IMG/VR virus record: IMGVR_UViG_3300009442_000015
Span: 1-38,061 of that record
Strand: one strand, 5' to 3'
DNA length: 38,061 nucleotides
From: a virus
Taxonomy: Duplodnaviria; Caudoviricetes
Of this stretch, positions 2,896 to 28,681 are shown one piece after another. Position 1 is the first letter of the stretch. The number at the start of each line of letters is the position of its first letter. The notes under the pieces are model-generated. The model searched no databases, was not told where the DNA came from, and saw nothing but the letters and a program-made list of their open reading frames with translations. Position numbers and translations under genes: made by a program.

Positions 2896-2997
2896 ATGTC
2901 GCAAGATTTTGATAATTGGGTAGAAGAGTTAGAGGAAAAAGAAGTTTCTGAATCGTGTAGTATTGATGACCCTGAATGTGAAAATTGTGGTTCATGA
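2896..2997 (+). CDS. 33-aa acidic Cys peptide MSQDFDNWVEELEEKEVSESCSIDDPECENCGS (RNR-alpha C-terminal-tail-like)
   Basis: Fills the gap exactly and its stop overlaps the next start (ATGA at 2994-2997). Ends in C-S-I-D-D-P-E-C-x-x-C-G-S. Confidence 0.75.
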   Translation: MSQDFDNWVEELEEKEVSESCSIDDPECENCGS

Positions 2998-3557
2998 AGT
3001 CTCCACATTCTTTTATTATAAAACCAGTAAAAGGAAGGCGCTATGACAATATTAAGAAAATTGGTGATGTGGATTTCATCACGAGCTCTTCAAAAGAAGA
3101 CCATAAAGTATCTAATAGATTTGCTGAAGTAATAGAAGTTCCTATTGGTTATAAAGGGGACATTAAGAGTGGTGATGTTCTTTTGGTTCATCATAATGTT
3201 TTTAAGTATTACAACGATATGCGGGGCCGAGAAAGGAGTAGTCATAACTTCTGGAAGGACGACATATTCTTTGTCGATTTTAATCAGTTTTTTCTATATC
3301 ACAATGGTGTCGGATGGAATACCACGGGCAAGTATTGCTTTATAAAACCCTCAGAGACTAAAGACTACTATTTAAATAAGTTTACTGAGGAGGAGCCTCT
3401 TGTCGGGACGATACGTTATATTACCAGAAAGCTACAAAATATAGGGCTAAAAGAGGGTGACGAGATAGCCTACACGCCTGATAGTGAATATGAATTTACC
3501 GTAGAAGGAGAAAAGCTTTATCGAGTAAATAGTGAAAACATTTGTATATTGCTTTGA
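2994..3557 (+). CDS. GroES-like co-chaperonin-fold protein (apparently two tandem domains)
   Basis: Two GroES-like patterns: FIIKP...AEVIEVP...IKSGDVLLV and CFIKP...GTIRY...LKEGDEIAY...EFTVEGEKLYRV. Start reassigned to the ATG at 2994. Confidence 0.6.
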   Translation: MKSPHSFIIKPVKGRRYDNIKKIGDVDFITSSSKEDHKVSNRFAEVIEVPIGYKGDIKSGDVLLVHHNVFKYYNDMRGRERSSHNFWKDDIFFVDFNQFFLYHNGVGWNTTGKYCFIKPSETKDYYLNKFTEEEPLVGTIRYITRKLQNIGLKEGDEIAYTPDSEYEFTVEGEKLYRVNSENICILL

Positions 3558-9136: not shown

Positions 9137-9144
9137 TAACTTTG
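9137..9144 (+). promoter_or_regulatory. Bacteroidetes sigma-A -7 box TAACTTTG
   Basis: Matches TAnnTTTG; intergenic, about 20 nt upstream of the scaffold ATG. Confidence 0.65.
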
Positions 9145-9163: not shown

Positions 9164-10276
9164 ATGAAAATCACAGTAAAAGAAGTCGCTGATGTCGAAG
9201 CAAAGTCAGTTCAAGAAGTTGAAAATGAATTGCTAGCTAAGCACGAAGAGGAATTTTCTCAAGAAGAAAAAGTTCCAGAAACAAATACAGTAGAGGTAGC
9301 TACTGAGGAAACTCAAGTTGCCGAACCTGAAAAAGAGAGTTCCTCACTTAAAGAGGAAGACGTTCTTTCATATATTAAAAATAGATATGATAAGCAGATT
9401 GACTCTGTAGATCAATTGTTTTCAGAAAGAGAGCAAGCTGAAGATTTACCAGAAGATGTTTCTGCTTATTTAAACTATAAAAAAGAAACAGGTCGAGGGA
9501 TTAAAGACTTTATTAAATTAAATGAAGACTTTGATGACCTAGACGACAATACTCTCTTAGCGAGATATTACGCCAACAAAGAAGATGGTCTCGATAGTGA
9601 TGACATTTCTTTTATGATCGAAGAAGAGTTCGGTTATGACAAAGAAATTGATGAAGAGTCAGACATTAGGCGTAAGAAGGTAGCTAAGAAAAAAGAACTT
9701 GCCAAAGCAAAGAACTTCTTTGAGGATCAAAAAGAGAAGTACAAAGCCCCTCTTGAGTCAAGCCCAGGGGTCGCTTCTACAAAAGACCAAGAAGAAATCA
9801 ATGCTTACAAGGAATACCAAGCGAAGGCTTTAAATATCCAAGATGAGGAACGTAAAAAGTACGAATGGTTTCAAAAGAAGACGGACGAATACTTCAATAA
9901 CGAATTCAAAGGTTTTGAGTTCAATGTTAATGATAGGGATATAGTCTACTCTCCTGCTGATGCTGCAGAAATTAAAAGCACTCAATCTGATCTTAATAAC
10001 TTTATTTCAAAGTATGTTAACAAAGATGGTGTTATTGATGATGCCAAGGGATACCATAAAGCTCTAGCGATGGCGATGAACCCAGACCGAGTAGCCAAGT
10101 TCTTCTATGAGCAAGGCATGTCGGACGCTGTAGATAATGTAGCAAGAAAGTCTAAGAACATTAATATGGACATTAGGCAGACGCCACAGAATCTTAGTAA
10201 AGGAGGGTTTAACGTGAAGTCCGTAAGCACTGACTCCGGTCGTGGCTTGAGGATCCGTTCAAATAAAAATAAATGA
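9164..10276 (+). CDS. Putative capsid scaffolding protein
   Basis: 370 aa, acidic and coiled-coil, immediately upstream of the MCP, with a basic C-terminus. Confidence 0.65.
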   Translation: MKITVKEVADVEAKSVQEVENELLAKHEEEFSQEEKVPETNTVEVATEETQVAEPEKESSSLKEEDVLSYIKNRYDKQIDSVDQLFSEREQAEDLPEDVSAYLNYKKETGRGIKDFIKLNEDFDDLDDNTLLARYYANKEDGLDSDDISFMIEEEFGYDKEIDEESDIRRKKVAKKKELAKAKNFFEDQKEKYKAPLESSPGVASTKDQEEINAYKEYQAKALNIQDEERKKYEWFQKKTDEYFNNEFKGFEFNVNDRDIVYSPADAAEIKSTQSDLNNFISKYVNKDGVIDDAKGYHKALAMAMNPDRVAKFFYEQGMSDAVDNVARKSKNINMDIRQTPQNLSKGGFNVKSVSTDSGRGLRIRSNKNK

Positions 10277-10291
10277 TTAAAATAAATTATT

Positions 10292-11701
10292 ATGGCTGTA
10301 GATGCAGTTCCCGGGTTTGACTTACAACCCAGTGCCGAGCGCGTAGCGCTTGCCACGAATTATATTACTAACTTCAATTTCTTGAATCAGTATCTTCCTG
10401 ATACTTATGAAAAGGAATTTGAGAGATACGGTAACCGTACCGTAGCTTCTTTCTTGAGAATGGTTGGCGCTGAAATGCCTTCTAACTCTGACCTTATCAA
10501 ATGGGCTGAGCAAGGAAGACTTCACACTAAGTATGTTGATGTTACTCCTCCTGCAGGGGGTTTAGCTGCTTCTGATACTGGAGTCTTTACTGTTAACGAT
10601 ACGCTTAATCCAAATACGGGTGGTATCGCTATCAGAATTGGACAGACAGTTATGTTTTCGGCTAACTCTCTTTCAATAACTAATAAGGCTATTGTAACTG
10701 CAGTAGACTACGCTGCTGGAACATTTACTGTTGCTTTCTATGAGGCAGCTGGTATGACTGCGGCTGCAGGGACAAAGTTCACTGTATTTATCTATGGTTC
10801 TGAATTTAAGAAAGGAACAAACGGAATGGTTGAGTCTTTAGAGGCTGACGATTCAATTTTTGAGAACTCTCCTATCATTATCAAGGACAAGTATGCTGTT
10901 TCTGGTTCTGACATGGCTCAGATTGGATGGGTAGAGGTAACTACTGAGAATGGTGCTTCTGGATACCTATGGTACATGAAATCAGAGCACGAGACTCGTC
11001 TCCGCTTTGAGGACTACCTAGAGACTGCTATGGTTGAGGCCGTTCCTGCTGAAGCTAATTCAGGAGCTATTGGTGCTGGAGCTGATGTTGGAAACAAAGG
11101 ATCTGAAGGTGTCTTCCACGTTGTGGGAGCTAGAGGTAATGTTTGGTCTGGAGGAAATCCAACTACATTGGCTGACTTTGATGCTATGATCGAAAGATTA
11201 GACAAGCAAGGAGCTATTCAAGAGAATGTTATTTTCTTAAACCGTCAGTTCGGTTTTGACGTTGATGATATGCTAGCTGCACAGAACTCTTATGGAGCAG
11301 GTGGTACTTCTTACGGATTGTTTGATAATGACGAAGAGATGGCTTTAAACTTAGGTTTCAAAGGCTTCACTCGTGGTTATGACTTCTATAAGACTGACTG
11401 GAAATATTTGAACGACCCAACTATGCGTGGTGGTTTAAATGCTGGTAAGATTTCAGGGCTTTTAGTTCCTGCTGGATCTACTACTGTTTATGACCAAATT
11501 CTTGGTAAGAACGCTAAGCGTCCTTTCCTTCACGTTAGATATCGTGCTTCAGAGACTGAAGATCGTCGATATAAGACTTGGATTACAGGTTCTGCTGGAG
11601 GTGCTGCTACAAGCGATCTTGACGCAATGGAGGTTAACTACCTTTCTGAGCGTGCTGTTTGTACTTTAGGTGCTAACAACTTCTTCTTGTTTGAAGGATA
11701 A
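10292..11701 (+). CDS. Major capsid protein
   Basis: 469 aa after portal and scaffold; strongly biased codon usage (GCT/GGT/ACT); followed by a strong terminator. Confidence 0.85.
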   Translation: MAVDAVPGFDLQPSAERVALATNYITNFNFLNQYLPDTYEKEFERYGNRTVASFLRMVGAEMPSNSDLIKWAEQGRLHTKYVDVTPPAGGLAASDTGVFTVNDTLNPNTGGIAIRIGQTVMFSANSLSITNKAIVTAVDYAAGTFTVAFYEAAGMTAAAGTKFTVFIYGSEFKKGTNGMVESLEADDSIFENSPIIIKDKYAVSGSDMAQIGWVEVTTENGASGYLWYMKSEHETRLRFEDYLETAMVEAVPAEANSGAIGAGADVGNKGSEGVFHVVGARGNVWSGGNPTTLADFDAMIERLDKQGAIQENVIFLNRQFGFDVDDMLAAQNSYGAGGTSYGLFDNDEEMALNLGFKGFTRGYDFYKTDWKYLNDPTMRGGLNAGKISGLLVPAGSTTVYDQILGKNAKRPFLHVRYRASETEDRRYKTWITGSAGGAATSDLDAMEVNYLSERAVCTLGANNFFLFEG

Positions 11702-14907: not shown

Positions 14908-17900
14908 ATGGACATACAAACTAATTTCATAAAAGGGCGCATGAATAAAAGCGTCGATGAAAGAATACTCCCTATGGGCGAGTATAGAGATGCTCTGAAT
15001 ATACGATTAGGCTCAACTGAGGGTACTACTATTGGAGCGGTAGAGAACACAAAGGGCAATGAGCAAATAACCACACTAGAACATAACGGAACTGCTTTAA
15101 GCGCAAACACTGTCTGTATTGGGGCTTACGAGGACGGGACAACAGAGACTATGTACTGGTTTGTTCACGACCCCACTAGAGGCGTAGACATGGTGGTTTC
15201 CTACAATACTAACATTCAAGCCCTTAACTATCACTTAATCTCTACATCTGTTTTAAACTTTGATCCTAAGTTCTTAGTCACGGGGGTAGACTTAATAGAT
15301 AACTTCTTGTTTTTTACAGACGATTTAAACCCACCAAGGGTTATTGATGTAAATAGACAATACGCCAACTCTTTTACTGAGGCAGACATTAGTGTGTTAC
15401 GACCAGCCCCTATAACATCTCCAACATTTACATTAAAAAATGTAAGCGGGGATGATGATTTTATGGAGACAAACTTTGTTTCGTTTGCGTATCGCTATAA
15501 GTATGAGAACCTTCAGTATAGCGCACTATCTCAGTTTTCAGAAGCGGCATTTTGCCCAGGGCCATACCTTGTCACGTTAGAGATGTATTCAAACACTGGT
15601 ATGCGAAATTTGTTTAACGCTGCCGCTGTTTCTTTTGACACTGGGGGCGCTAGCGTCATAGGCATAGACTTATGTTTTAAGGTAAGCAACACAAACGTAG
15701 TTAATGTAATTCAGAAGTTTAACAAAGAAGAAGAAGGCTGGGCGGACAACACCACTCAGACGGTTGATTTTTCTAACAACAAAGTCTTTACTACCCTAGC
15801 TTCAGATGAGCTTTTACGATTATTTGACAATGTCCCCTTAAAAGCAAAGGCGCAAACAACCATGAGTAACCGTATTTTTTATGGAAACTATGTTGAGGGG
15901 TATGACGTAACAAACCCTAACGGAGAGCCGTTGCTTATAAACTACACTACTGAGATAGTTAGTGAGTCAGCTATAAGTACGGACGAGATTTTATCGGAAG
16001 TTAAAAATGGTGCCACAGCCTATAATGATGGATTTACTAGTCCCGCTTTTACAGTGGCAGGCTCTGCTGCTCAACTTAATTTTACAAATGCAAACCTAGA
16101 GACCGGAGACATAGTTACAATAGAGCTTGGCTTTAAATTTAAACAACAAACCACTACTATATCAGGGTATTCTACACTTACATTTAACACCTTTAGGACT
16201 TCTATAAGTATAACTGTAGACGCTAACTATGCGAATATACAGGCTTGGATTGCTGCAGGAACCACATTCCAAGCAGCTCTTGGTAGTACAACAATGCAAA
16301 ATACGGCTAATCTTTGTCAAGGATTAACTTTTGGAGACAAGTTTGGTTGTGCAATGCCTAATCCTTTTGACGATGTTCAAGGGGTTACAACCCCTTGGAA
16401 TAAGAACGGAACCTTTATTGGAACTGCTCCCAACGGAAGTGGAACCAACAATCAATCTTTTGGAATCACTGTGGTTAATGCTAACGTAATTCAACTGCAA
16501 GCTCCTGCGATGATGTATACTCTTGAAGGGGACAGTAGTATAAAACTTGCCTTCTATTCTGAGGTTGTAGACCCTGTTGTTGGTTATATAAAATCCGATT
16601 TTAATAGGACACTTCATAGCAATAGAGGCTATCAACTAGGAATAGTGTATATGGACGCGCAGGGGAGAAACTCTACTGTGCTAACCTCTGAGACAAATAA
16701 TCAGTTTGTCCCTGTCCGCTCGTCAGAAACTAGGAACTACCTTAAAGCAACAATAAACAACCTTGCGCCACCATGGGCATCTCGATATAAGTTTGCACTG
16801 CAAGCCTCTCAAGGTGATTTTGAAACTATTTACATACAAAGAACAAAAGCTGAAATTGGCGGAGGGGCAGACACCGCTACCTATCTTCCTTTGGAGGGCG
16901 AAAATCAAACAAAGTTTATTATAGGAGACACACTAATATGTAAGGTAGATGGTTTCGGGCCTTTAAATAACCTTGTAGAAGTTGAAGTTTTAGACATATT
17001 CACAAATAATGATGGTCAATTAGTTGCTAAAATAGAAACAGAGGGAAGCATTAGCATAGCGGGAACTATTAATTTCTTGGTATTTGAAACTAAAGCCCCT
17101 AGCGTTGCAGAGGGTATTTTCTATGAAGGGTCTCAGAGTTTTTCTATCACCAATAGATTTCATCAAGGTAACGCTCAAACGCAAACAGGCTCTCAACCAG
17201 CAATTGTTAATTTAGATTTTTTTAACGCATATACTTTTGGAAACGGAGTAGAAGGCTATAAGATTGAGGACTTAATAGCTGGAGATCCCCTAGCTATAGG
17301 GAGTCGAGTTAATGGCGTAAGCGCAGAGGGATATAATCAAACAAGAAATGACTCTAGCTTGACATATAGCGGAGTGTATCAACCCACGACAAATGTCAAT
17401 AATTTAAATGAGTTTAATTTGGCTCTTGTTAATTTTAAAGACTTAGAGCAAAACTTTGGCGCTATTCAAAAGCTTCACTCTAGGGCAACAGACATTTTAG
17501 TTCTTCAAGAGGATAAAATAAGCTATGTTCTAGCGTCTAAAAACCTCATAAGCTCTCCAGGGACAGGTGGAATTATAAGTTCAATACCAGAGGTTATAGG
17601 CAATCAGATTGCAAGAATTGAAGAGTATGGTATTAGTTTAAATCCGGAGAGCTTTACTGCCTATGGTTTTGATCGTTATTTTACTGATGCCAAAAGAGGA
17701 GCAGTTTTAAAATTAACAGGCTCGGGGCCTAGCGAAAAACTAGAGATAATATCTAACTATGGTATGCGTTCTTGGTTTAGGGATAGGTTTATTGAGTATT
17801 TTGATGGACAAAAGCTAGGGGGCTATGACCCATATATGAACGAATATGTATTGTCTATAAAAGACGATGAAGTTGATATGGGTGAGACAACCATTCCTTG

Positions 17901-18189
17901 TGGAGCGCAGATTAATGCAAACGACGCAGTGACTAGAGAGTTTACTGTAGAACTTGGAAATGTGGGGGCAGCGTTAAATACATTTGTTTTAACATATACC
18001 ATTGGAGTAATTGCCACCACAATAGAGTTTCAAGTTACTTATAACGGGGTGGTGTACACAAGCACGAATGTTAGTGCAAGTGGGTCATTTTCAGTCCCTA
18101 AGACAACAAAGTACCCAACGCAGGCAGTTGTTAAGATTATACCTGCGGGAAAAACACAGTATGAACTAACAATAGGATGTGTGTCATGA
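14908..18189 (+). CDS. Tail stabilisation / nozzle protein (P22 gp10-like role), N-terminal major part
   Basis: 1093 aa, beta-rich; starts with FIKGRMNKSVDERILP.GEYRDALNIR; contains FFTDDLNPPR and YFTDAKRGAVL motifs typical of this class. Confidence 0.7.
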   Translation: MDIQTNFIKGRMNKSVDERILPMGEYRDALNIRLGSTEGTTIGAVENTKGNEQITTLEHNGTALSANTVCIGAYEDGTTETMYWFVHDPTRGVDMVVSYNTNIQALNYHLISTSVLNFDPKFLVTGVDLIDNFLFFTDDLNPPRVIDVNRQYANSFTEADISVLRPAPITSPTFTLKNVSGDDDFMETNFVSFAYRYKYENLQYSALSQFSEAAFCPGPYLVTLEMYSNTGMRNLFNAAAVSFDTGGASVIGIDLCFKVSNTNVVNVIQKFNKEEEGWADNTTQTVDFSNNKVFTTLASDELLRLFDNVPLKAKAQTTMSNRIFYGNYVEGYDVTNPNGEPLLINYTTEIVSESAISTDEILSEVKNGATAYNDGFTSPAFTVAGSAAQLNFTNANLETGDIVTIELGFKFKQQTTTISGYSTLTFNTFRTSISITVDANYANIQAWIAAGTTFQAALGSTTMQNTANLCQGLTFGDKFGCAMPNPFDDVQGVTTPWNKNGTFIGTAPNGSGTNNQSFGITVVNANVIQLQAPAMMYTLEGDSSIKLAFYSEVVDPVVGYIKSDFNRTLHSNRGYQLGIVYMDAQGRNSTVLTSETNNQFVPVRSSETRNYLKATINNLAPPWASRYKFALQASQGDFETIYIQRTKAEIGGGADTATYLPLEGENQTKFIIGDTLICKVDGFGPLNNLVEVEVLDIFTNNDGQLVAKIETEGSISIAGTINFLVFETKAPSVAEGIFYEGSQSFSITNRFHQGNAQTQTGSQPAIVNLDFFNAYTFGNGVEGYKIEDLIAGDPLAIGSRVNGVSAEGYNQTRNDSSLTYSGVYQPTTNVNNLNEFNLALVNFKDLEQNFGAIQKLHSRATDILVLQEDKISYVLASKNLISSPGTGGIISSIPEVIGNQIARIEEYGISLNPESFTAYGFDRYFTDAKRGAVLKLTGSGPSEKLEIISNYGMRSWFRDRFIEYFDGQKLGGYDPYMNEYVLSIKDDEVDMGETTIPCGAQINANDAVTREFTVELGNVGAALNTFVLTYTIGVIATTIEFQVTYNGVVYTSTNVSASGSFSVPKTTKYPTQAVVKIIPAGKTQYELTIGCVS

Positions 18190-18926
18190 GTGATTATACT
18201 ATAACATATAGCGAGTCAGTTAAAGGGTTTCCTTCTTTTTACTCTTATATACCTGAGTATATAATGGGAATGAACAATTACCTATATACTTTTAAAGCGG
18301 GTAATTTATACAGGCATAACACAAATGAAGGTAGAAATAAGTTTTACAATGTAAGCTACCCTTCTACAGTGACAAGTGTTTTTAATATAGAGCCTACAGC
18401 ATCTAAAAAATTTAAGACTTTATCCTTAGAGGCAAACAGTCCTTGGGGAGCCGCCTTCAAGACAAACCTAGAGACTGGCGTTATAAACTCAGCGTGGTAT
18501 GACTTAAAAGAGGGAAGCTACTATGCCTCTATAAGGGCGAATGAGTCTCCCGTTAATTTTCACATGAGGTCTGTTGATGGCATAGGCAATGTGACTACAG
18601 TTAGTAATGTGGGGGCTACATACACGCTAGTATTTGCTTTTGCGATAAACCCCATTGTTAGCATTGGCGATAAGATATACAAGGACTTAAATCCAGAATT
18701 GGAGGTTGGTTCCCTAACGGCTGTATCGGCAGACAGAAAGACTCTTACGGTAACTTTAACAGGAACCGCCCCCGCTAATGGCAACTATATTTTTGCCGTT
18801 AAAAACCCACAAGCGGAATCCCAAGGAGTTATGGGATATTATTGTGAGTTCACTTTAACAAACACAAGCACTACCCATGTAGAGCTATTTACTGTAGAGT
18901 CTAGTATATTTAAATCATATCCATGA
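18186..18926 (+). CDS. Tail protein, probably the separated C-terminal part of the stabilisation protein
   Basis: ATGA-coupled start at 18186; TITYSESVKGFPSFYSYIPE...YTFKAGNLYRH and KKFKTLSLE motifs. Confidence 0.55.
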   Translation: MSDYTITYSESVKGFPSFYSYIPEYIMGMNNYLYTFKAGNLYRHNTNEGRNKFYNVSYPSTVTSVFNIEPTASKKFKTLSLEANSPWGAAFKTNLETGVINSAWYDLKEGSYYASIRANESPVNFHMRSVDGIGNVTTVSNVGATYTLVFAFAINPIVSIGDKIYKDLNPELEVGSLTAVSADRKTLTVTLTGTAPANGNYIFAVKNPQAESQGVMGYYCEFTLTNTSTTHVELFTVESSIFKSYP

Positions 18927-21583: not shown

Positions 21584-24500
21584 ATGAACGAGTTAGAGAA
21601 GCTTTGGAATGTTTTAAGTAGAGATGGTTTCTACACTAAGTCTTTTGATGAATTTGCTAATCAGACTCAGGACAAATCCTACCAAGATAAAGTGTATGGC
21701 GTTGCCGAAAGGGAAGGCTACTTTACAAAAGGACAAGAGGCTTTTAATGAAAAGTATTTTCTTGGTCAAGATCCTTTAAAAAAAAAAGAAGACTCCGAGT
21801 TGCCTTCCACGCCTCCGCAGGATGGTATGGAATCCACTGCACAAGAGGTGGAAGTCAGTGGCACATCGGCTGGTTCCGCTCCTCAGTCGGGTGAGAAAGA
21901 TACCCTTATTGAAAGAGTTGTAGGCAAAAACATTCCTATAGTATCGGGGTTTGCTGATTTTGTGGGAGACATATATAGGTCTGCTGAACAGGGATATGTG
22001 CAGGGTAACACCGCTGATGAGTCCTATGACTTAATGTTTAAAGGGGCAAACACCTCAGAGAAAGACATTGAAGAGTTCCTTGCAGCTCAAGAAGAGCTAG
22101 CTTCAATGGGTCAGACGGATGAAATGAAGAGGTTTAATGAAGTGTATGATGAGAGTGGTGGAGGTCTTTTTGGATTTATAAAGGGTCTATCTACAGCTCC
22201 GATTTCATTAATGGCTCAGTTAGCTGCACAGACAACAGCACAGATGGTTAACAAAGCTTCCGCTGGAGCCGTTGGGGCAACAGTGGGGACTGGAGCTACT
22301 GCTGGAGCTGTAGGTGGCTCTGCCTTCGGTGGCATAGGCGCAATCCCAGGTGCTATTGGTGGAGCTATTTCATCATTGCCTTTTGCTTTTGGAGCATCAG
22401 GCGCCGCCCTAGAGACAGGAATATCTTTTTCAGAGTTTTTAAGAGAGGAAGTAGAGGCTAAAGGCTTAGATTTTAATAAAGAAAATATTAGTATTGTGCT
22501 TAATGATGCCGACGCCCTACGTCGGATCAGAACAAAGTCTGCAGGAAGAGGCGCTATTATTGGTATAATAGACAGATATTCTGCTGGGCTTGGAGGAAAG
22601 TATATTGGAAAGCTAGCGGCAAAAGGCGCGGGCAAAGGAAAGAGAGCGGCTGTTGCTCTAGGAGCAGAGAGTGTCGGCGGTGGTGTAGGAGAGACTGCGG
22701 CAAGGCTTTTTGCAGGTCAAGACTTAGACGCCAGAGAAATAGGCTTTGAAACCATAGGGGGAGCTGGTAAGGCTCCTCTTACATATGCTTATGGAAAGCT
22801 AGTTAAGCCTGCTCAGTATTTTATAAACGGAGAACAAGTTGGTTTAGATATTTATACTGAGTCTTTAAATGCAGACGACAAGTCTTTTGCAGGAACGACA
22901 TTTGATGTCAAGAATGATCCTGAGCTTAAAAACCAGACGGAAGAAAGGAAAGAAAGGCTAAGATCTCAAAGTGAAATAAATAAAGCCAAACTAAAAGCAG
23001 AGAGCGATGCCATTCAAGAGTCAAGCACAGAGAGCGTGGATGTACAAGAACAAACCACAGTTAGCGAAACAATGGGAGAAGGAGACACCCAAGAACAAAC
23101 CGTTACAGAAGAAGTTGAGCAAGAGTTCACAGAGCCTAGCGGGGAAGCCCAAGTCGAGACGACGCCTGAGATTGAGGCCGAGATAGAAAGCTTAGAGCAG
23201 GCTCTTCCTGAACAAGCAAATAACAATGTAGACGCTCAGCTTCAATTAGATACTGAAGTTACTCCGAAAAAGAAAAAAACCGCTTTGGTTCAAGAGGCGG
23301 TTGAGATGATGGAGGATCCTACAAATCAAACCAAGCTAGAGGAAGAGGCATTTGACGCAACCAACCCAGCGCCCAACGTAAAAACTTATCAGATAGATGT
23401 CAAAGAAAACTCAAAGCTAGCAGCTAAAGTAAAGAGGATGGGGCTGAGTGAGCTTATTGGTAAAAGAGTTAACCTAGTCATGGCAGATCAGCTAAAAGTG
23501 GGTGAAGTTAAAGTAGGTAATAAAAAATTAAAGAGAATGGGAGGGCCTTTCTTCCCTATGATGGAGGAGATGTTCGGTAAGGTTGCTTGGGCTTCTATTG
23601 ACGAAGTTGCGGCTAAAAAAATAATTAACGGTGCTATAAAATCAGATTTTTCTGTGGTATACAACATGAGCCCTAGCGCTGTAGACTCAAATGTTGCTAT
23701 ACTAGAGACTTTTGTAGAGTCTGTAAACGGACTAGACAGCGATACTCAAGATAAAGTTTTTGAGTTGATGAGTGAGAAGCTTAAAACTCAAGAATTCAAA
23801 AAAAGTTCTGTAGAAAAAGTAAGAGGTATTGCGAATAGCGCAAAGAACATTAATGAAATGATGTCTCTTATAAGTGGTCTTGATGTAGATACCAAGGCCG
23901 ATATAATGAAAAAGCTTGTTCCTTCAAAAAATGTACAAGCTGAAACTCAATTAGGAGGGATACTCCAACAGAATAAAATTACAATTGAGGACATACGAGA
24001 TTTAAATATAGAACAGTTTGCATCAGACCTGCCTGCAGGAGCACTAACAACAGTTCTTCAGGTTACTGACAAACAAGGAAACCCAATAACTAAAGAGACG
24101 GCCAGCGAAGCCATTCTAACAAGAGATCAGCAAGAAGCAGAAGGGCTTCCTAAGCATGAAAACTACCCAGTATATATAAGAGGAAAAGCTGTTGGCTTAC
24201 TGAAAGAGACTGTTCCTTTTTGGAATATGTATAAGTCTTCAATGAGCTCTCTTAATGCTAAAGCGGCTGGTCTAGTAAAGAAAAAAGTTGCTGCCACAAA
24301 AACCAAGCCTGCTTCAAAAAGAAATATTACATCAAAAGAGGCTAGGTCAAATGAAATGAGAAGCGCTTCTATGAGCGCTAGTCAGTCTAGAAAATTATCA
24401 TCTCCTGAAACAACCACGAATAAAAAGTTTGTGAGCCTTCTTCAAAGAGCGTTTCCTAACGTGGAAGTTATGTCTAGTCAAGAAGACTTTGATGCTTTGA

Positions 24501-27500
24501 CTAAAGACCTAAACTCTAAGTCGTTATCGACAAAAAGTCAAAAGGTGTATGGCGCTGTAATGAATGGTAAGCTGTACTTAAACCCAGGTCTAGAAAACTT
24601 CAACACTCCCATACATGAGTTTGGTCACATATGGCTTAACGTAGCCAAAGAGGCCAAGCCTGAGCTTTTTAAAAAGGGAATGAGCCTTATAAAAGGCACT
24701 GCGTATGAGACACAGATTAAAGAAAGCCCAGAGTATAAGAGGGTTGTAAAGCAAATGCTTAAAGACGGTGCTAGTCAAGAAACTATAGACGCATATATAC
24801 TAGAAGAGGCCTTGGCTACTGCGATTGGAGATCAGGGAGAGGCTTTTGTTACTGCAGCTCAAAAAATAAGTTTTAAAACTTGGCTACAGGACTTGTATTC
24901 TTTTGTTAAAAACATGACCGGGTTATCTCAATACTCACCTGACCAGCTAGAGAACATAACTCTTAGTGAATTTCTTAAAGGTGTTAATGTAGACTTGCTA
25001 TCGGGTAACGAAGTATTTGCTGGAGCTGAAGCTAAAGGTCTAAGTGACGCACTTCAGTTAATGACAGACTCATCTGACGAGGAGGTAAGAACATTTGTAG
25101 AGAAAGCAAGAGGTCTTGGTTACTCCGAAATAGCTATAAAGGCAGTGCTAGAAAAAAGAGGATTTGAATCTGATGTTGTGTCTGAAGCAATGTCAGGTAT
25201 CGAGGCTGACACAAAAGCCAAAATAACAGAAGACCTTGTCCCTGGTTCTGATAGTGTAAAAAAACAGATAGACAATCTTATACAAAGAATAAAAGTTAAA
25301 GCAAAAAATAATTATAAAAACAAAATGTCTGCATTCCCTTCTAGGGGGTCTACAAAAACTGTAAATCTTAAAGATGTATTTCCTAGTGCGCTTAAGCTTT
25401 TAAAAAACTCTAAAGTCTATAAAGAATCAACTGATGTTGTAAGAGAACAAGCGGTAAGAGAACTTAGAAAAGAGTTCGGGTTAAAGGAGAAGGCGTCACC
25501 ATCTAAAGCGTCTCTCGACTCTAACTTTGGTAAGGAGATAACAACAACAGATAAAAAATTATATGTTAAGAGACTAAATGACCTACAAGAAGGAGCTAAG
25601 ACCGCACAACAGGCCATGAAAGAAGCCACTAACCTGATAACTGAAAATGTTAAGGCTCTAGTTAAAAAGGGTTCTATAACAAATGCGCAGGCTCAAAGGA
25701 TATTAAATAGACTTGCCAAGGTTGATGTCCTTAATGATTCCTCTATAAATAGCTTTATGGATTATATGGCTAACGTGTATAATAAGTCCGAAAGTAAATA
25801 CAAGAATACTTTAATAAATAATATTCTTAAAAGAGTTTCTAAATCTGCAAAGAAATCAAAGTCTGTAGACGCTGACAGCCAGCAGTTCTTTGAGGTCATG
25901 AAGACTGTGCTGAATAAGGTTCTTGCAAAAGTAAATGGCAAACCCGTGAAGATTGATTCTGAAAGTATAAAAGAATCTTTATTTCCTGATATTGACACAA
26001 TACTTCAGAAAGACTTTTCAGAATTAACAAACAAAGAAAAGTCTCAGCTATATGCTTCAGAGATATTTGAGTCTGTAGATGGCCTTAGAGACATGAGCCT
26101 TGAACAGGTTGAGCAATTACTAGAAGACGTTAAAAGAGGTCAAGAGGGTGGCCGCTTGGAGCTTAAGAAAAAACTTGACGCGTTCAGAGCTGAGGTTAAA
26201 GAAGTTCAGAATCAAGCTGACAAAAATATTGAGGATGGCTACTCGGAGCTTTTTGACGGCGGCAAGCCAAAGGATAAAAATCAACTAGATGCTGATAGAG
26301 ATGCTAGGCGCATTAAATTATTTGGCGAAGGTCTAGGTGATGCTATAAATAAATACGCTAAGGAGTTTTCTTATACTAAGGTGGGAAAGATGATTCAATC
26401 TATAGGTAATAACTTAAAGCACTTGGGCACACTTGCCAACGGCCTTGATAAGGCTGGTTCCTTTTTCAAAAAGAATGTATACGACGCCCTCAATAGAATG
26501 GAGAGTGCGTACACAAAGGGGCTTCAAGGAACTCGATCCAAGATGGACGAAATAGCAAAGACTATTGACGGCATAAACAGCTATAAGGATATTAAAAGAA
26601 AGCTTGCTACAGGTGTCCATAAAATAACAGGTCTTAAGACTTCAAGAGGCGTATCTCTTTCTAGCGTCGAGTTTAACGCAGACCAACTCATGAGGCTGTA
26701 TGCCCTTAGTAAGAATGAGATTCAACGTAAAAAGCTACTCGCTCAAGGGCTTACTGATAAGAAACTAAAGGAAATTGAGGCTATTTTAGGCAAAGAAGTA
26801 GTTGAGTTTGTTAACAAGACTGTAGAATACTTAAGCACAGAATACTTTGAAAAAACTAATGATGTTTACTCTGATGTTAACAATGTAAACCTAGGGTATG
26901 TGGATGACTACTTTCCAACTCAAACCATTCAAACTAAAGTTAATGCTGACTTACTAGAGAATGGAGACTTTAGCGGTGTGTTTAATGCTCAGACCGCTCC
27001 CGCTTTAAAAGAGAGGGTTGACCTAACGGGAGATGTAGACCTTAGAGGCTCAGACTTTACCTCAACTCTTGAAAATCACTTTGAAACTATTGAGAGGTAT
27101 AAGGCATATGCTAAGGGAGTTAAGAAGATGAACTCTATATTTAAGTTTAAGTCTGTTAATACTCTGCTAAACGAGAGCGGCCTTAACAGTGCTGTAAAGA
27201 ACGCAATAAACTACGCTGTTAATCCTAATGGTGGGAAGTCTGCAATTCAAGCAAATTTAATTGACAACTTCATGACTAAGTATACAGGTTTTGCCCTAGC
27301 CTTTAAGGCTGTTCAAATCCTTAAGCAGTCTACGTCTTTTGTAAACGCTTTTGAAGACTATTCCTACAGAGGTAAAGGAAAATCAAAAATTCCAGGGCTT
27401 GACCTTCTGATGTTTATGGTTGACGGAGCTAAAGTTGCAGTCACCATGCCTTCACAGATTAAAAAAGCTTGGAATATGTCTCCAATGTTTCAAGAACGTC

Positions 27501-28681
27501 TACTTAAAGGTCTAGAAGGAGATGTGTATGGTCTTGAGACAGGCTCGGTAACTTATAAGCCCGCATCTCAGTCGCAAAAAAATAGAGCCTTTAAAATGTT
27601 AAAAGCCGCGGCTGGTAGCCCTACTGTATTTGGTGACATACTTGGAGTTATGGGGTATATGATTAACTACAACAGAGACATCGCTAATGGAATGAGTGAG
27701 GCTGATGCTCTTGCAAAGTTTGAAGACTATAATGCCACTCAGCAATCAAGGCGAAGCACTGACAAGATACCTTTGCAGATGAATAGCAACTCCTTAGTTC
27801 GGGGTTTTACCATGTTCGGAAGCACGCTATTCTTGCAGATGAATAAGGTTATGCAGTCAACAACCAATATATTAAGGTCGATAAGCAAGAGAGAGAACCC
27901 ATCGGCTAAAAGCGTTAGAGGCCTTGTCCTTAATCTTGGAGTAGCTAACGTAATGTTTGCATTAGCGGCCAACATATCTAAGTTTATTAAAGGAGAAGAC
28001 GAAGATAGGGAAGAGGCCTTAGCTAAGATGAAGGAAGCAATGATGGGTCTTAATCTTATATATCAGATTCCTTATTTCGGAGCTGCCGCTGAAGAGGCGA
28101 TTAATAAGATGACCGGCAAGGGAGGTAGACCAGTTGACTCTGTGGTAAATCCTTTTAGTTCATTATCAAGAAAGTTTACTAGACTAGCTAAGTTGTCAAA
28201 GAAAGAGAAGGATGATGGTCAGTCTAAGTCTTTAAGTAGCGCTGTAAGGGTTCTAGTTGAGATTCTATTAGGTGTTCAGTTTGATCCATTTATTGGACTT
28301 TCAAACTTTTTCCAAGGAGACTTTAGTGAAGATAATGTATACGATGTCCTTGGAATTAGTTCTTCATATAGACCTAAAGCTAAATCTGATTCTCAAATAA
28401 GAAAAGAGAAGCTGGGTCAGTATGATAATGAGACCGATATGAAAAGGTATGATAGGGGCTTATGGGAAAGAACATTTGGCTCTCAGTCCGAAGGCTATAA
28501 AGAAAGAGAGGCGATTAAAGAGGAAAAGAAACAGGAGGCTAAAAGGAAGAGAGAAATGAAAGACCTTGAGTATAATTACAAAACCCCTCCTAAACGATCA
28601 AGAAAGTCTGGGTCAGGCAGTAGTTTCTTTGGCTCTGGGAAGTCTAAATCTAAAAAGTCTAGAAATAGTTTTTTTAATTAA
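21584..28681 (+). CDS. Giant ejection / polyvalent protein with TM-like Gly-Ala region and zincin metallopeptidase motif
   Basis: 2365 aa. Gly/Ala hydrophobic hairpin at about 22200-22700; TPIHEFGHIW (HEFGH at 24614-24628) with downstream EEALA (about 24803); helical C-terminal domain. Confidence 0.75.
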   Translation: MNELEKLWNVLSRDGFYTKSFDEFANQTQDKSYQDKVYGVAEREGYFTKGQEAFNEKYFLGQDPLKKKEDSELPSTPPQDGMESTAQEVEVSGTSAGSAPQSGEKDTLIERVVGKNIPIVSGFADFVGDIYRSAEQGYVQGNTADESYDLMFKGANTSEKDIEEFLAAQEELASMGQTDEMKRFNEVYDESGGGLFGFIKGLSTAPISLMAQLAAQTTAQMVNKASAGAVGATVGTGATAGAVGGSAFGGIGAIPGAIGGAISSLPFAFGASGAALETGISFSEFLREEVEAKGLDFNKENISIVLNDADALRRIRTKSAGRGAIIGIIDRYSAGLGGKYIGKLAAKGAGKGKRAAVALGAESVGGGVGETAARLFAGQDLDAREIGFETIGGAGKAPLTYAYGKLVKPAQYFINGEQVGLDIYTESLNADDKSFAGTTFDVKNDPELKNQTEERKERLRSQSEINKAKLKAESDAIQESSTESVDVQEQTTVSETMGEGDTQEQTVTEEVEQEFTEPSGEAQVETTPEIEAEIESLEQALPEQANNNVDAQLQLDTEVTPKKKKTALVQEAVEMMEDPTNQTKLEEEAFDATNPAPNVKTYQIDVKENSKLAAKVKRMGLSELIGKRVNLVMADQLKVGEVKVGNKKLKRMGGPFFPMMEEMFGKVAWASIDEVAAKKIINGAIKSDFSVVYNMSPSAVDSNVAILETFVESVNGLDSDTQDKVFELMSEKLKTQEFKKSSVEKVRGIANSAKNINEMMSLISGLDVDTKADIMKKLVPSKNVQAETQLGGILQQNKITIEDIRDLNIEQFASDLPAGALTTVLQVTDKQGNPITKETASEAILTRDQQEAEGLPKHENYPVYIRGKAVGLLKETVPFWNMYKSSMSSLNAKAAGLVKKKVAATKTKPASKRNITSKEARSNEMRSASMSASQSRKLSSPETTTNKKFVSLLQRAFPNVEVMSSQEDFDALTKDLNSKSLSTKSQKVYGAVMNGKLYLNPGLENFNTPIHEFGHIWLNVAKEAKPELFKKGMSLIKGTAYETQIKESPEYKRVVKQMLKDGASQETIDAYILEEALATAIGDQGEAFVTAAQKISFKTWLQDLYSFVKNMTGLSQYSPDQLENITLSEFLKGVNVDLLSGNEVFAGAEAKGLSDALQLMTDSSDEEVRTFVEKARGLGYSEIAIKAVLEKRGFESDVVSEAMSGIEADTKAKITEDLVPGSDSVKKQIDNLIQRIKVKAKNNYKNKMSAFPSRGSTKTVNLKDVFPSALKLLKNSKVYKESTDVVREQAVRELRKEFGLKEKASPSKASLDSNFGKEITTTDKKLYVKRLNDLQEGAKTAQQAMKEATNLITENVKALVKKGSITNAQAQRILNRLAKVDVLNDSSINSFMDYMANVYNKSESKYKNTLINNILKRVSKSAKKSKSVDADSQQFFEVMKTVLNKVLAKVNGKPVKIDSESIKESLFPDIDTILQKDFSELTNKEKSQLYASEIFESVDGLRDMSLEQVEQLLEDVKRGQEGGRLELKKKLDAFRAEVKEVQNQADKNIEDGYSELFDGGKPKDKNQLDADRDARRIKLFGEGLGDAINKYAKEFSYTKVGKMIQSIGNNLKHLGTLANGLDKAGSFFKKNVYDALNRMESAYTKGLQGTRSKMDEIAKTIDGINSYKDIKRKLATGVHKITGLKTSRGVSLSSVEFNADQLMRLYALSKNEIQRKKLLAQGLTDKKLKEIEAILGKEVVEFVNKTVEYLSTEYFEKTNDVYSDVNNVNLGYVDDYFPTQTIQTKVNADLLENGDFSGVFNAQTAPALKERVDLTGDVDLRGSDFTSTLENHFETIERYKAYAKGVKKMNSIFKFKSVNTLLNESGLNSAVKNAINYAVNPNGGKSAIQANLIDNFMTKYTGFALAFKAVQILKQSTSFVNAFEDYSYRGKGKSKIPGLDLLMFMVDGAKVAVTMPSQIKKAWNMSPMFQERLLKGLEGDVYGLETGSVTYKPASQSQKNRAFKMLKAAAGSPTVFGDILGVMGYMINYNRDIANGMSEADALAKFEDYNATQQSRRSTDKIPLQMNSNSLVRGFTMFGSTLFLQMNKVMQSTTNILRSISKRENPSAKSVRGLVLNLGVANVMFALAANISKFIKGEDEDREEALAKMKEAMMGLNLIYQIPYFGAAAEEAINKMTGKGGRPVDSVVNPFSSLSRKFTRLAKLSKKEKDDGQSKSLSSAVRVLVEILLGVQFDPFIGLSNFFQGDFSEDNVYDVLGISSSYRPKAKSDSQIRKEKLGQYDNETDMKRYDRGLWERTFGSQSEGYKEREAIKEEKKQEAKRKREMKDLEYNYKTPPKRSRKSGSGSSFFGSGKSKSKKSRNSFFN
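23007..23186 (+). CDS. Nested +1-frame 59-aa basic protein MPFKSQAQRAWMYKNKPQLAKQWEKETPKNKPLQKKLSKSSQSLAGKPKSRRRLRLRPR
   Basis: ATG 23007 to TAG 23186, wholly inside the giant gene. Resembles, from memory, small stand-alone phage proteins beginning MPFKS.AQR..M. Confidence 0.55.
   Translation: MPFKSQAQRAWMYKNKPQLAKQWEKETPKNKPLQKKLSKSSQSLAGKPKSRRRLRLRPR

Follow-up and report, generated by a model that had tools for sequence, protein, structure and literature searches.

Can a short reading frame lying wholly inside a giant phage gene be a gene in its own right, and if so, how did it come to be there and what might its product do? The locus that raises this question lies in the window, by which we mean the whole 38,061-nt stretch analysed (positions 1 to 38,061 of IMG/VR record IMGVR_UViG_3300009442_000015, a 63%-complete virus record from a marine phage). 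On its plus strand, positions 23007–23186 encode the 59 residues MPFKSQAQRAWMYKNKPQLAKQWEKETPKNKPLQKKLSKSSQSLAGKPKSRRRLRLRPR, followed by a stop (TAG 23184–23186), in the +1 frame relative to a 2365-aa ORF at 21584–28681. A sequence-only reading of this DNA had described a complete frame with its own ATG and its own stop, an in-frame TAA four codons upstream, and a basic product nested in an acidic host linker. All of this was borne out: the TAA occupies 22992–22994, the nested product contains 19 Lys or Arg residues (computed pI 11.9), and the host frame contains 20 Asp or Glu residues in the 61 aa across the overlap. The nested product has neither cysteine nor a hydrophobic run. Alignments and a structure model divide it into a conserved module, residues 1–34 (23007–23108, plus strand), with an extended N-terminus, short predicted helices at residues 6–15 and 17–26 and an LP-type end, and a variable basic tail with 11 Lys or Arg in 25 aa and no predicted fold (23109–23183, plus strand). 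The helices were modelled with good confidence (pLDDT 88/94/84 over residues 1–30) and the tail as unstructured. Shifted to the +1 frame, 144/192 Glu codons of the giant gene encode Lys or Arg, versus 302/2,172 for other codons, and the basic character of the tail thus arises in part from the acidity of the host frame.

The host gene (21584–28681, plus strand) ends an operon of terminase, portal, scaffold-like, capsid, muzzle-like and giant genes. Its product matches phrog_32588 at aa 101–475 as well as the 'structural protein' of Tenacibaculum phage Gundel_1, and is likely an internal virion or ejection protein. A zincin-like HExxH motif, HEFGH, is found at aa 1011 (24614–24628), within the part common to Gundel_1. 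The acidic linker in the host frame, which begins DAIQESSTESVDVQEQ, spans aa 475–535 (23006–23188, plus strand) and is present only where the small gene is nested; the giant protein of L086, in which the small gene is free-standing, lacks it. Between the portal and major capsid genes lies a 370-aa acidic scaffold-like gene (9164–10276, plus strand), which holds no nested copy here and is the alternative host gene for the small ORF in other phages. The major capsid protein gene (10292–11701, plus strand), so named in the Calle_1 record, served as an independent census marker. By capsid protein, the nearest cultured relatives are Maribacter phage Panino (55%), Elemovirus (48%), Pervagoviridae (42%) and Pachyviridae (25%). 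Gene starts in the window are A-rich and without Shine-Dalgarno sequences, and we infer a Bacteroidota host. Two other features of the operon region are a GroES-like co-chaperonin gene (phrog_13932) at 2985–3557, 5′ of the terminase gene, and a split muzzle-like arrangement at 14908–18926, where adjacent genes match the N part (PF25731) and the C-terminal domain (PF25729) of the crassvirus muzzle protein.

The existence of the nested ORF is by itself weak evidence and could be due to chance (P about 0.3). Among 500 synonymous recodings of the giant gene, 31% contained a +1 ATG ORF of at least 59 codons somewhere, and with the host protein held fixed an ATG followed by 59 open +1 codons arose at the exact nested site in 3.1% of 20,000 recodings. 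The family match of the ORF is not due to chance: against a profile of 13 members, all of them free-standing or N-terminally fused, it scored 69.8 bits, a value that none of 3,000 recodings reached (mean 7.3, maximum 38.7). The island of DNA shared with other phages also starts at the nested ATG, as many contigs of other phages in four public runs join the window's DNA exactly at 23006–23007 and leave it by about 23090. An apparent conservation of 1,700 codons downstream was an artefact of the locus edge.

The sequence-only reading had suggested a resemblance to small stand-alone phage proteins of the MPFKS type, and this family proved to be real. The nested product carries its N-terminal module, M-P-F-K-S-x-x-Q...P...W...L-P, and is thus a member of an MPFKS...W...LP microprotein family. 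Profile searches found 3,421 family representatives (E ≤ 0.001) among 1.84 billion, and a larger collection contained 2,021 short family proteins, the names of which, among the matches listed, are 'hypothetical' or blank. The module is not confined to small proteins: of the best 150 representatives, half (75) exceed 90 aa in length, nearly all of them with the module at the N-terminus and unrelated sequence behind it. A Pfam domain C-terminal of the module was identified in 10 of 72 long members scanned; pyrophosphatase, DUF3293/SAM-lyase-like, NUDIX, cupin, DnaJ, ferritin-like and DUF5661 domains occur in this position in the proteins P0066, P0137, P0153, P0039, P0133, P0151 and P0083. P0016, in which IF3_C was seen, appears to be a chimeric gene call. 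One subgroup (L322–L327, L186–L188 and L191), seen in both giant-nested and scaffold-nested positions, is marked by a pair of cysteines and by extra residues separating the helices (KC...W.C), and reaches 68 aa.

Searches against named families returned little. No Pfam model matched any of 43 members or P0001 beyond chance, and a PDB sequence search gave repeat-protein artefacts and short chance matches only. Foldseek and VIA-align comparisons with the PDB revealed no fold match, and the fold search of BFVD yielded uncharacterised phage proteins only (best E 2e-3). phrog_1375, of unknown function, weakly matches 37/43 members (best E 3.6e-5; P0001 itself, E 0.6). The nearest named cluster by features is labelled DUF3008 (0.81–0.85). 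A link to DUF3008 (PF11450) was not supported, as 0/43 members matched the Pfam model at E up to 10 and only KSQAQ aligned in hhalign (probability 2–5%), a comparison made with a thin six-row profile of DUF3008 proteins that leaves room for a remote relationship.

Substitution patterns show that the inner frame is under purifying selection and that the outer frame is also constrained. Across the cores of 30 non-redundant nested loci, the first, second and third codon positions of the nested frame had entropies of 0.50, 0.43 and 0.76, the host wobble position being the least variable (0.43 vs 0.76). Between 18 nearest-neighbour pairs, changes per site amounted to 0.208 where silent in the nested frame, 0.070 where silent in the host frame only and 0.077 where they altered both proteins, and no nested stop was present at 110 possible sites. 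Host-synonymous differences in 13 close pairs, which are not fully independent and in which one locus was used twice, affected 7/334 codons (2.1%) in the core and 9/282 in the tail, versus 1,336/6,531 (20.5%) outside the overlap; nested-synonymous differences (21/292, 7.2%) ran at one third of the outside rate. Of the wobble choices that could stop the host frame, 0/165 did so in nested copies versus 75/143 in 20 free copies; stops interrupt the host-equivalent frame in 19 of these 20. Indels in nested loci keep both frames. The sequence-only reading had proposed examining whether homologues retain the ATG and the open +1 frame and whether substitutions favour that frame; both are the case, and the outcomes it had set against the gene were absent. 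The nested gene is real and selected, and this evidence makes dual coding highly probable, with both frames kept and translation of the inner one likely beginning at its own ATG within the giant mRNA.

The start region (22992–23006, plus strand) contains the in-frame TAA, which doubles as a TAAAA element, with A at −14 to −11 and −6 and G at −3. In F. johnsoniae, A at −3, −6, −12 and −13 raises initiation, and an A−3G change reduced reporter output by 70%, according to the accessible text of PMC6847099. The concern raised earlier that the start context is not the A-rich optimum is half right: it applies to the G at −3 and fails for −6 and −11 to −14. Across 30 nested loci the start signal is conserved, A being present at −13 in 29/30, at −12 in 25/30, at each of −11, −6 and −5 in 27/30 and at −3 in 17/30, against a background of 34–44% A in the flanking linker. 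Nested ATGs carry on average 3.27 A's at the four key places versus 1.35 for other internal ATGs, and the nested ATG falls within the top tenth of internal ATGs at 20/30 loci. The window's own nested ATG, with three of the four key A's and rank 25 of 145 internal ATGs, is only a moderate start, and given the G at −3 its product may be made at a lower level.

We found no enrichment of an internal promoter. TAnnTTTG, a Bacteroidota promoter element, occurred within 300 nt upstream of the nested ATG at 1/30 loci versus 4.6 expected. In the window the motif is found at 9137, 12554, 13928, 18934, 19617 and 21523, that is, 27–61 nt before several structural gene starts including that of the giant gene. 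A slippery site of the form X XXY YYZ was absent from 30/30 nested ORFs, and an in-frame stop lies at most five codons upstream of the nested ATG at 19/30 loci. Folding of the overlap RNA was no better than that of shuffles (z −0.96), and Rfam gave no match for it. As neither a promoter motif nor a slippery site was detected and stops precede the ATG, internal initiation on the giant mRNA appears to be the simplest reading.

The census of homologous loci showed that the small gene is mobile in position. In the search with the small protein, 69 of the best 80 of 482 confirmed stretches carried it nested, always in the +1 frame, 61 of them in giant ORFs and 8 in genes homologous to the 370-aa scaffold-like one of the window; the other loci were free or fused (9), partly overlapping (1) or cut by a contig end (1). 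From the other side, the best 80 of 179 stretches found with the N-terminal domain of the giant protein included 54 with the +1 ORF, 15 without it and 11 that ended or were broken before a verdict. When the whole records of these 15 long non-carrier giants were searched, the small gene was free in 6, 2–8 nt 3′ of the giant ORF, +1-nested in the scaffold-like gene in 5, and found nowhere in 4 (24, 39, 66 and 100% complete). In G011, a complete 78-kb relative, the small gene was unmatched in the whole record. Since the giant-side alignment had been built mostly from carriers (20 of 22 rows at the time, plus carrier L091), the census was repeated with the capsid gene, which gave 80 loci and 30 contigs of at least 30 kb, 27 of which were searched after three known carriers were left out. 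Matches were found in 21/27: 16 nested and intact, 4 free behind a long ORF and 1 broken. All six contigs without the small gene are less than 90% complete, and among records at least 90% complete 7/7 have it. The gene thus has three alternative positions in the lineage, as a rule with one intact copy per genome; G026 (71% complete) has a 5′-broken copy only.

A quick unrooted tree of 67 N-terminal domains of the giant, a mosaic gene, required three changes for the free state, among nested branches, and two for the scaffold state. L094, a free-state giant without the linker text, groups with the nearest relatives of the window in a branch with a support of 100. Because the tree is unrooted and the gene mosaic, it shows repeated moves and not their direction. 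In G027 (L327:826, 1501) one giant gene contains a nested copy of 67 aa that is intact and, 675 nt 5′ of it, a decayed duplicate in which the +1 frame stops after 13 codons and the host frame is open, likely a snapshot of duplication and decay. In G022 (L177:1209–1662) the overlap is partial and involves a third host gene: the 3′ end of a 127-aa ORF shares its DNA with the small gene, which is read in the +1 frame and extends beyond the stop of that ORF. L017:2159–8905 and L007:2204–10126 have the small gene +1-nested in giants of contigs with 60% and 46% GC; these giants match each other, show no blastp match to other hosts outside the overlap and are G-rich upstream, and the small gene possibly entered them independently, in phages that infect a different group of hosts. 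The L017 giant also has a weak, below-cut-off match to a metalloprotease fold. Prokaryote genome assemblies yielded 32 loci, nested or free and all on MAG contigs, the organism labels of which are no evidence of host.

How these observations are best explained depends on whether the inner frame acts as a separate protein and which of the two frames came first. Ribosomal frameshifting that makes the nested frame an N-terminal tag of the giant protein (from the nested start by −1, or from the host start by +1) would agree with a module that is genuinely N-terminal in longer proteins, where DUF3293 follows it in one case and a pyrophosphatase domain in another, but the missing slippery sites, the upstream stops, the ordinary RNA folding and the close relatives that keep the gene free behind the giant's stop make this very unlikely. 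Conservation for reasons other than protein, as a silent relic or a DNA or RNA cis-element, appears less probable still; core DNA conservation is very high and decayed copies do exist (in G026 and the 13-codon duplicate of G027), but variation is concentrated at nested third positions without stops, indels respect both frames, no Rfam match or unusual fold was seen in the overlap, and free copies share the protein even though their third positions are only 30–63% identical. Classical overprinting, in which the protein was born in the acidic linker and later escaped to free and fused forms, has more to recommend it, as free states at three places among nested branches mean that exits happened, and among de novo overlaps the internal +1 type is the most frequent according to the accessible text of PMC8227390. 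We nonetheless regard it as improbable: a small protein with thousands of representatives, including high-GC and unrelated contexts, occurs nested in two or more unrelated host genes, and the host-frame text exists only in nested copies, being interrupted by stops in nearly all free ones. According to the same accessible text, the more widely spread frame is the ancestral one (PMC8227390), and by its wide distribution the small protein would be that frame. It is therefore likely that the small gene was captured into the acidic linker, not born there. The term 'overprinted' used in the sequence-only reading, if taken in its classical sense of a new protein arising within an existing gene, is probably wrong as to direction; and the dual-coding and captured gene that it had offered as alternatives are two halves of one history, the gene being likely both absorbed and still selected. 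In the capture model, the small gene would be the older partner, a copy of which landed in a glutamate-rich linker; the other frame of this copy would have been cleared of stops to become linker, and later duplications and losses would have moved the small gene again. The reading of Glu codons as Lys or Arg in the +1 frame would explain why nested copies are without exception in that frame and why the sites in both host genes are acidic.

For the function of the captured gene, the neighbourhood of free copies offers the main clue. Annotated free copies are found in virion modules, after the portal gene in Indlulamithi and 023Pt_psg01 and after the capsid gene in C75C1 and S-CBS2, and at 24 free or partly overlapping loci the nearest large neighbour was a portal, terminase, scaffold or protease gene in 8, a gene of another function in 3 and uninformative in 13 (46 of 79 extracted neighbours were scanned). 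Head-gene neighbours, virion-module matches and the way in which the module leads unrelated proteins, as the T4 targeting sequence does, suggest a role in the head. In such a role residues 1–34 would dock on a prohead component (the inner face of the capsid, the scaffold or the portal), much as a packaging tag would, and the basic tail would bind packaged DNA or acidic linkers. We put about even chances on a protein of the head interior in which the module docks and the tail binds DNA or linkers. Its main rival is a translated but non-virion late regulator or host binder, acting for example on nucleic acid, ribosome or polymerase and nested for late expression at no cost in length. The evidence for selection and for the start site fits this equally well, several cultured relatives do without the gene, the fusion partners include enzymes and regulators (NUDIX, cupin, DnaJ and pyrophosphatase), and some free copies adjoin replication (DNA polymerase) or methyltransferase genes. 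Named neighbours are nonetheless mostly head genes (8/11 informative loci), and each of the three positions in the lineage lies within or next to a head or virion gene; we consider the regulator unlikely. Taken as a whole, the account that we prefer, combining dual selection, internal initiation and a small basic protein predicted to reside inside the phage head, is moderately probable. A broader version is tentative and somewhat less probable than its opposite: a widespread head-targeting module may occur in three forms, a free gene, an N-terminal tag of hundreds of unrelated cargo proteins and a stowaway hopping into and out of the +1 frame of acidic linkers in virion genes, which the Glu-to-Lys/Arg pairing would turn into ready landing sites; the embedded gene would then change its host gene and yet remain functional. 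Were the packaging tag true, it would explain why the module leads many unrelated phage proteins and would provide a tool to load cargo into heads.

Known systems resemble this one in part. In spanins such as lambda Rz/Rz1, a larger phage gene likewise wholly encloses a small one in its +1 frame, the two genes are separated in relatives, and duplication followed by deletion has been proposed as a route (PMC6139136). In the accessible text of that study, Kongari et al. describe no spanin family combining embedded with overlapped or separated members (PMC6139136), whereas among close relatives the small-gene family studied here shows all three architectures, embedded, partly overlapped (G022) and separated, and changes between two unrelated host genes. 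Unlike spanins, the nested gene has no lipobox, transmembrane segment or lysis context and lies in a structural operon, and its host gene is 40 times longer, with no partnership between host and nested products implied. Viral overprinting of the phiX174 type and in eukaryotic viruses shares the same-strand +1 internal overlap and low-complexity host frame in the accessible text of PMC8227390, but there the inner protein is new and without outside homologues; here the inner family is wide and has such homologues, and the host segment is the newcomer. The T4 internal proteins also have a short conserved N-terminal sequence before diverse cargo entering the prohead, as described in the accessible part of PMC3012670; unlike the T4 capsid targeting sequence, our module is ~35 aa with predicted helices, and the comparison is one of working principle, with no sequence relation seen. 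The capsid stabilisation protein of the Patience gp4 type is another small accessory capsid protein of variable length (PMC11965321, accessible part). We rejected identity with it, as the annotated capsid accessory protein of Barnyard is gp3 and the weak match is gp9, and no PDB match was found.

The family is a natural experiment on the origin and dissolution of overlaps, as close relatives contain one protein with and without a second frame, and the decayed duplicate caught within one giant gene adds to its value for overlap history. Gene callers drop embedded genes, with the consequence that a conserved gene has been missed in the annotations of an abundant group of aquatic Bacteroidota phages, cultured Elemovirus included; about 5,300 IMG/VR stretches share capsid-protein words with the window. 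Among the open-access papers listed by our literature searches we found no description of the family or the overlap; subscription papers, including the Elemovirus description, and supplements could mention it.

Elemovirus (Flavobacterium phage vB_FspP_elemoA) is the nearest cultured carrier, with the same gene order and capsid and portal proteins 48% and 46% identical to those of the window. Its nested member, a complete 42-aa +1 ORF within a 3,694-aa structural gene (MT497017.1, 54224–54352), is unannotated in the record, and its giant protein gave no blastp match to that of the window. This cultured phage-host pair, which is non-pathogenic, makes the readings above directly testable. Among Flavobacterium phages, 68 records match by portal and there are 68 matches to a divergent family member; among the matches listed, all 28 rows stand under a 'structural protein'. 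No family match was found in Panino, phi38:1, phi13:2 or Gundel_1; as these phages and G011 show no match and G026 has the gene broken, the small protein may be dispensable. Weak family matches (E 2e-4 to 4) extend to cultured actino- and cyanophages. Those in unannotated gaps of C75C1 (OQ984151.1, 34579), S-CBS2 (GU936714.1, 34225) and P-RSP2 (HQ332139.1, 7034) are probably missed small genes, C75C1 being the one of the three that was translated. DUF3293, which is fused to the module in one long family member, also occurs in the Elemovirus giant protein.
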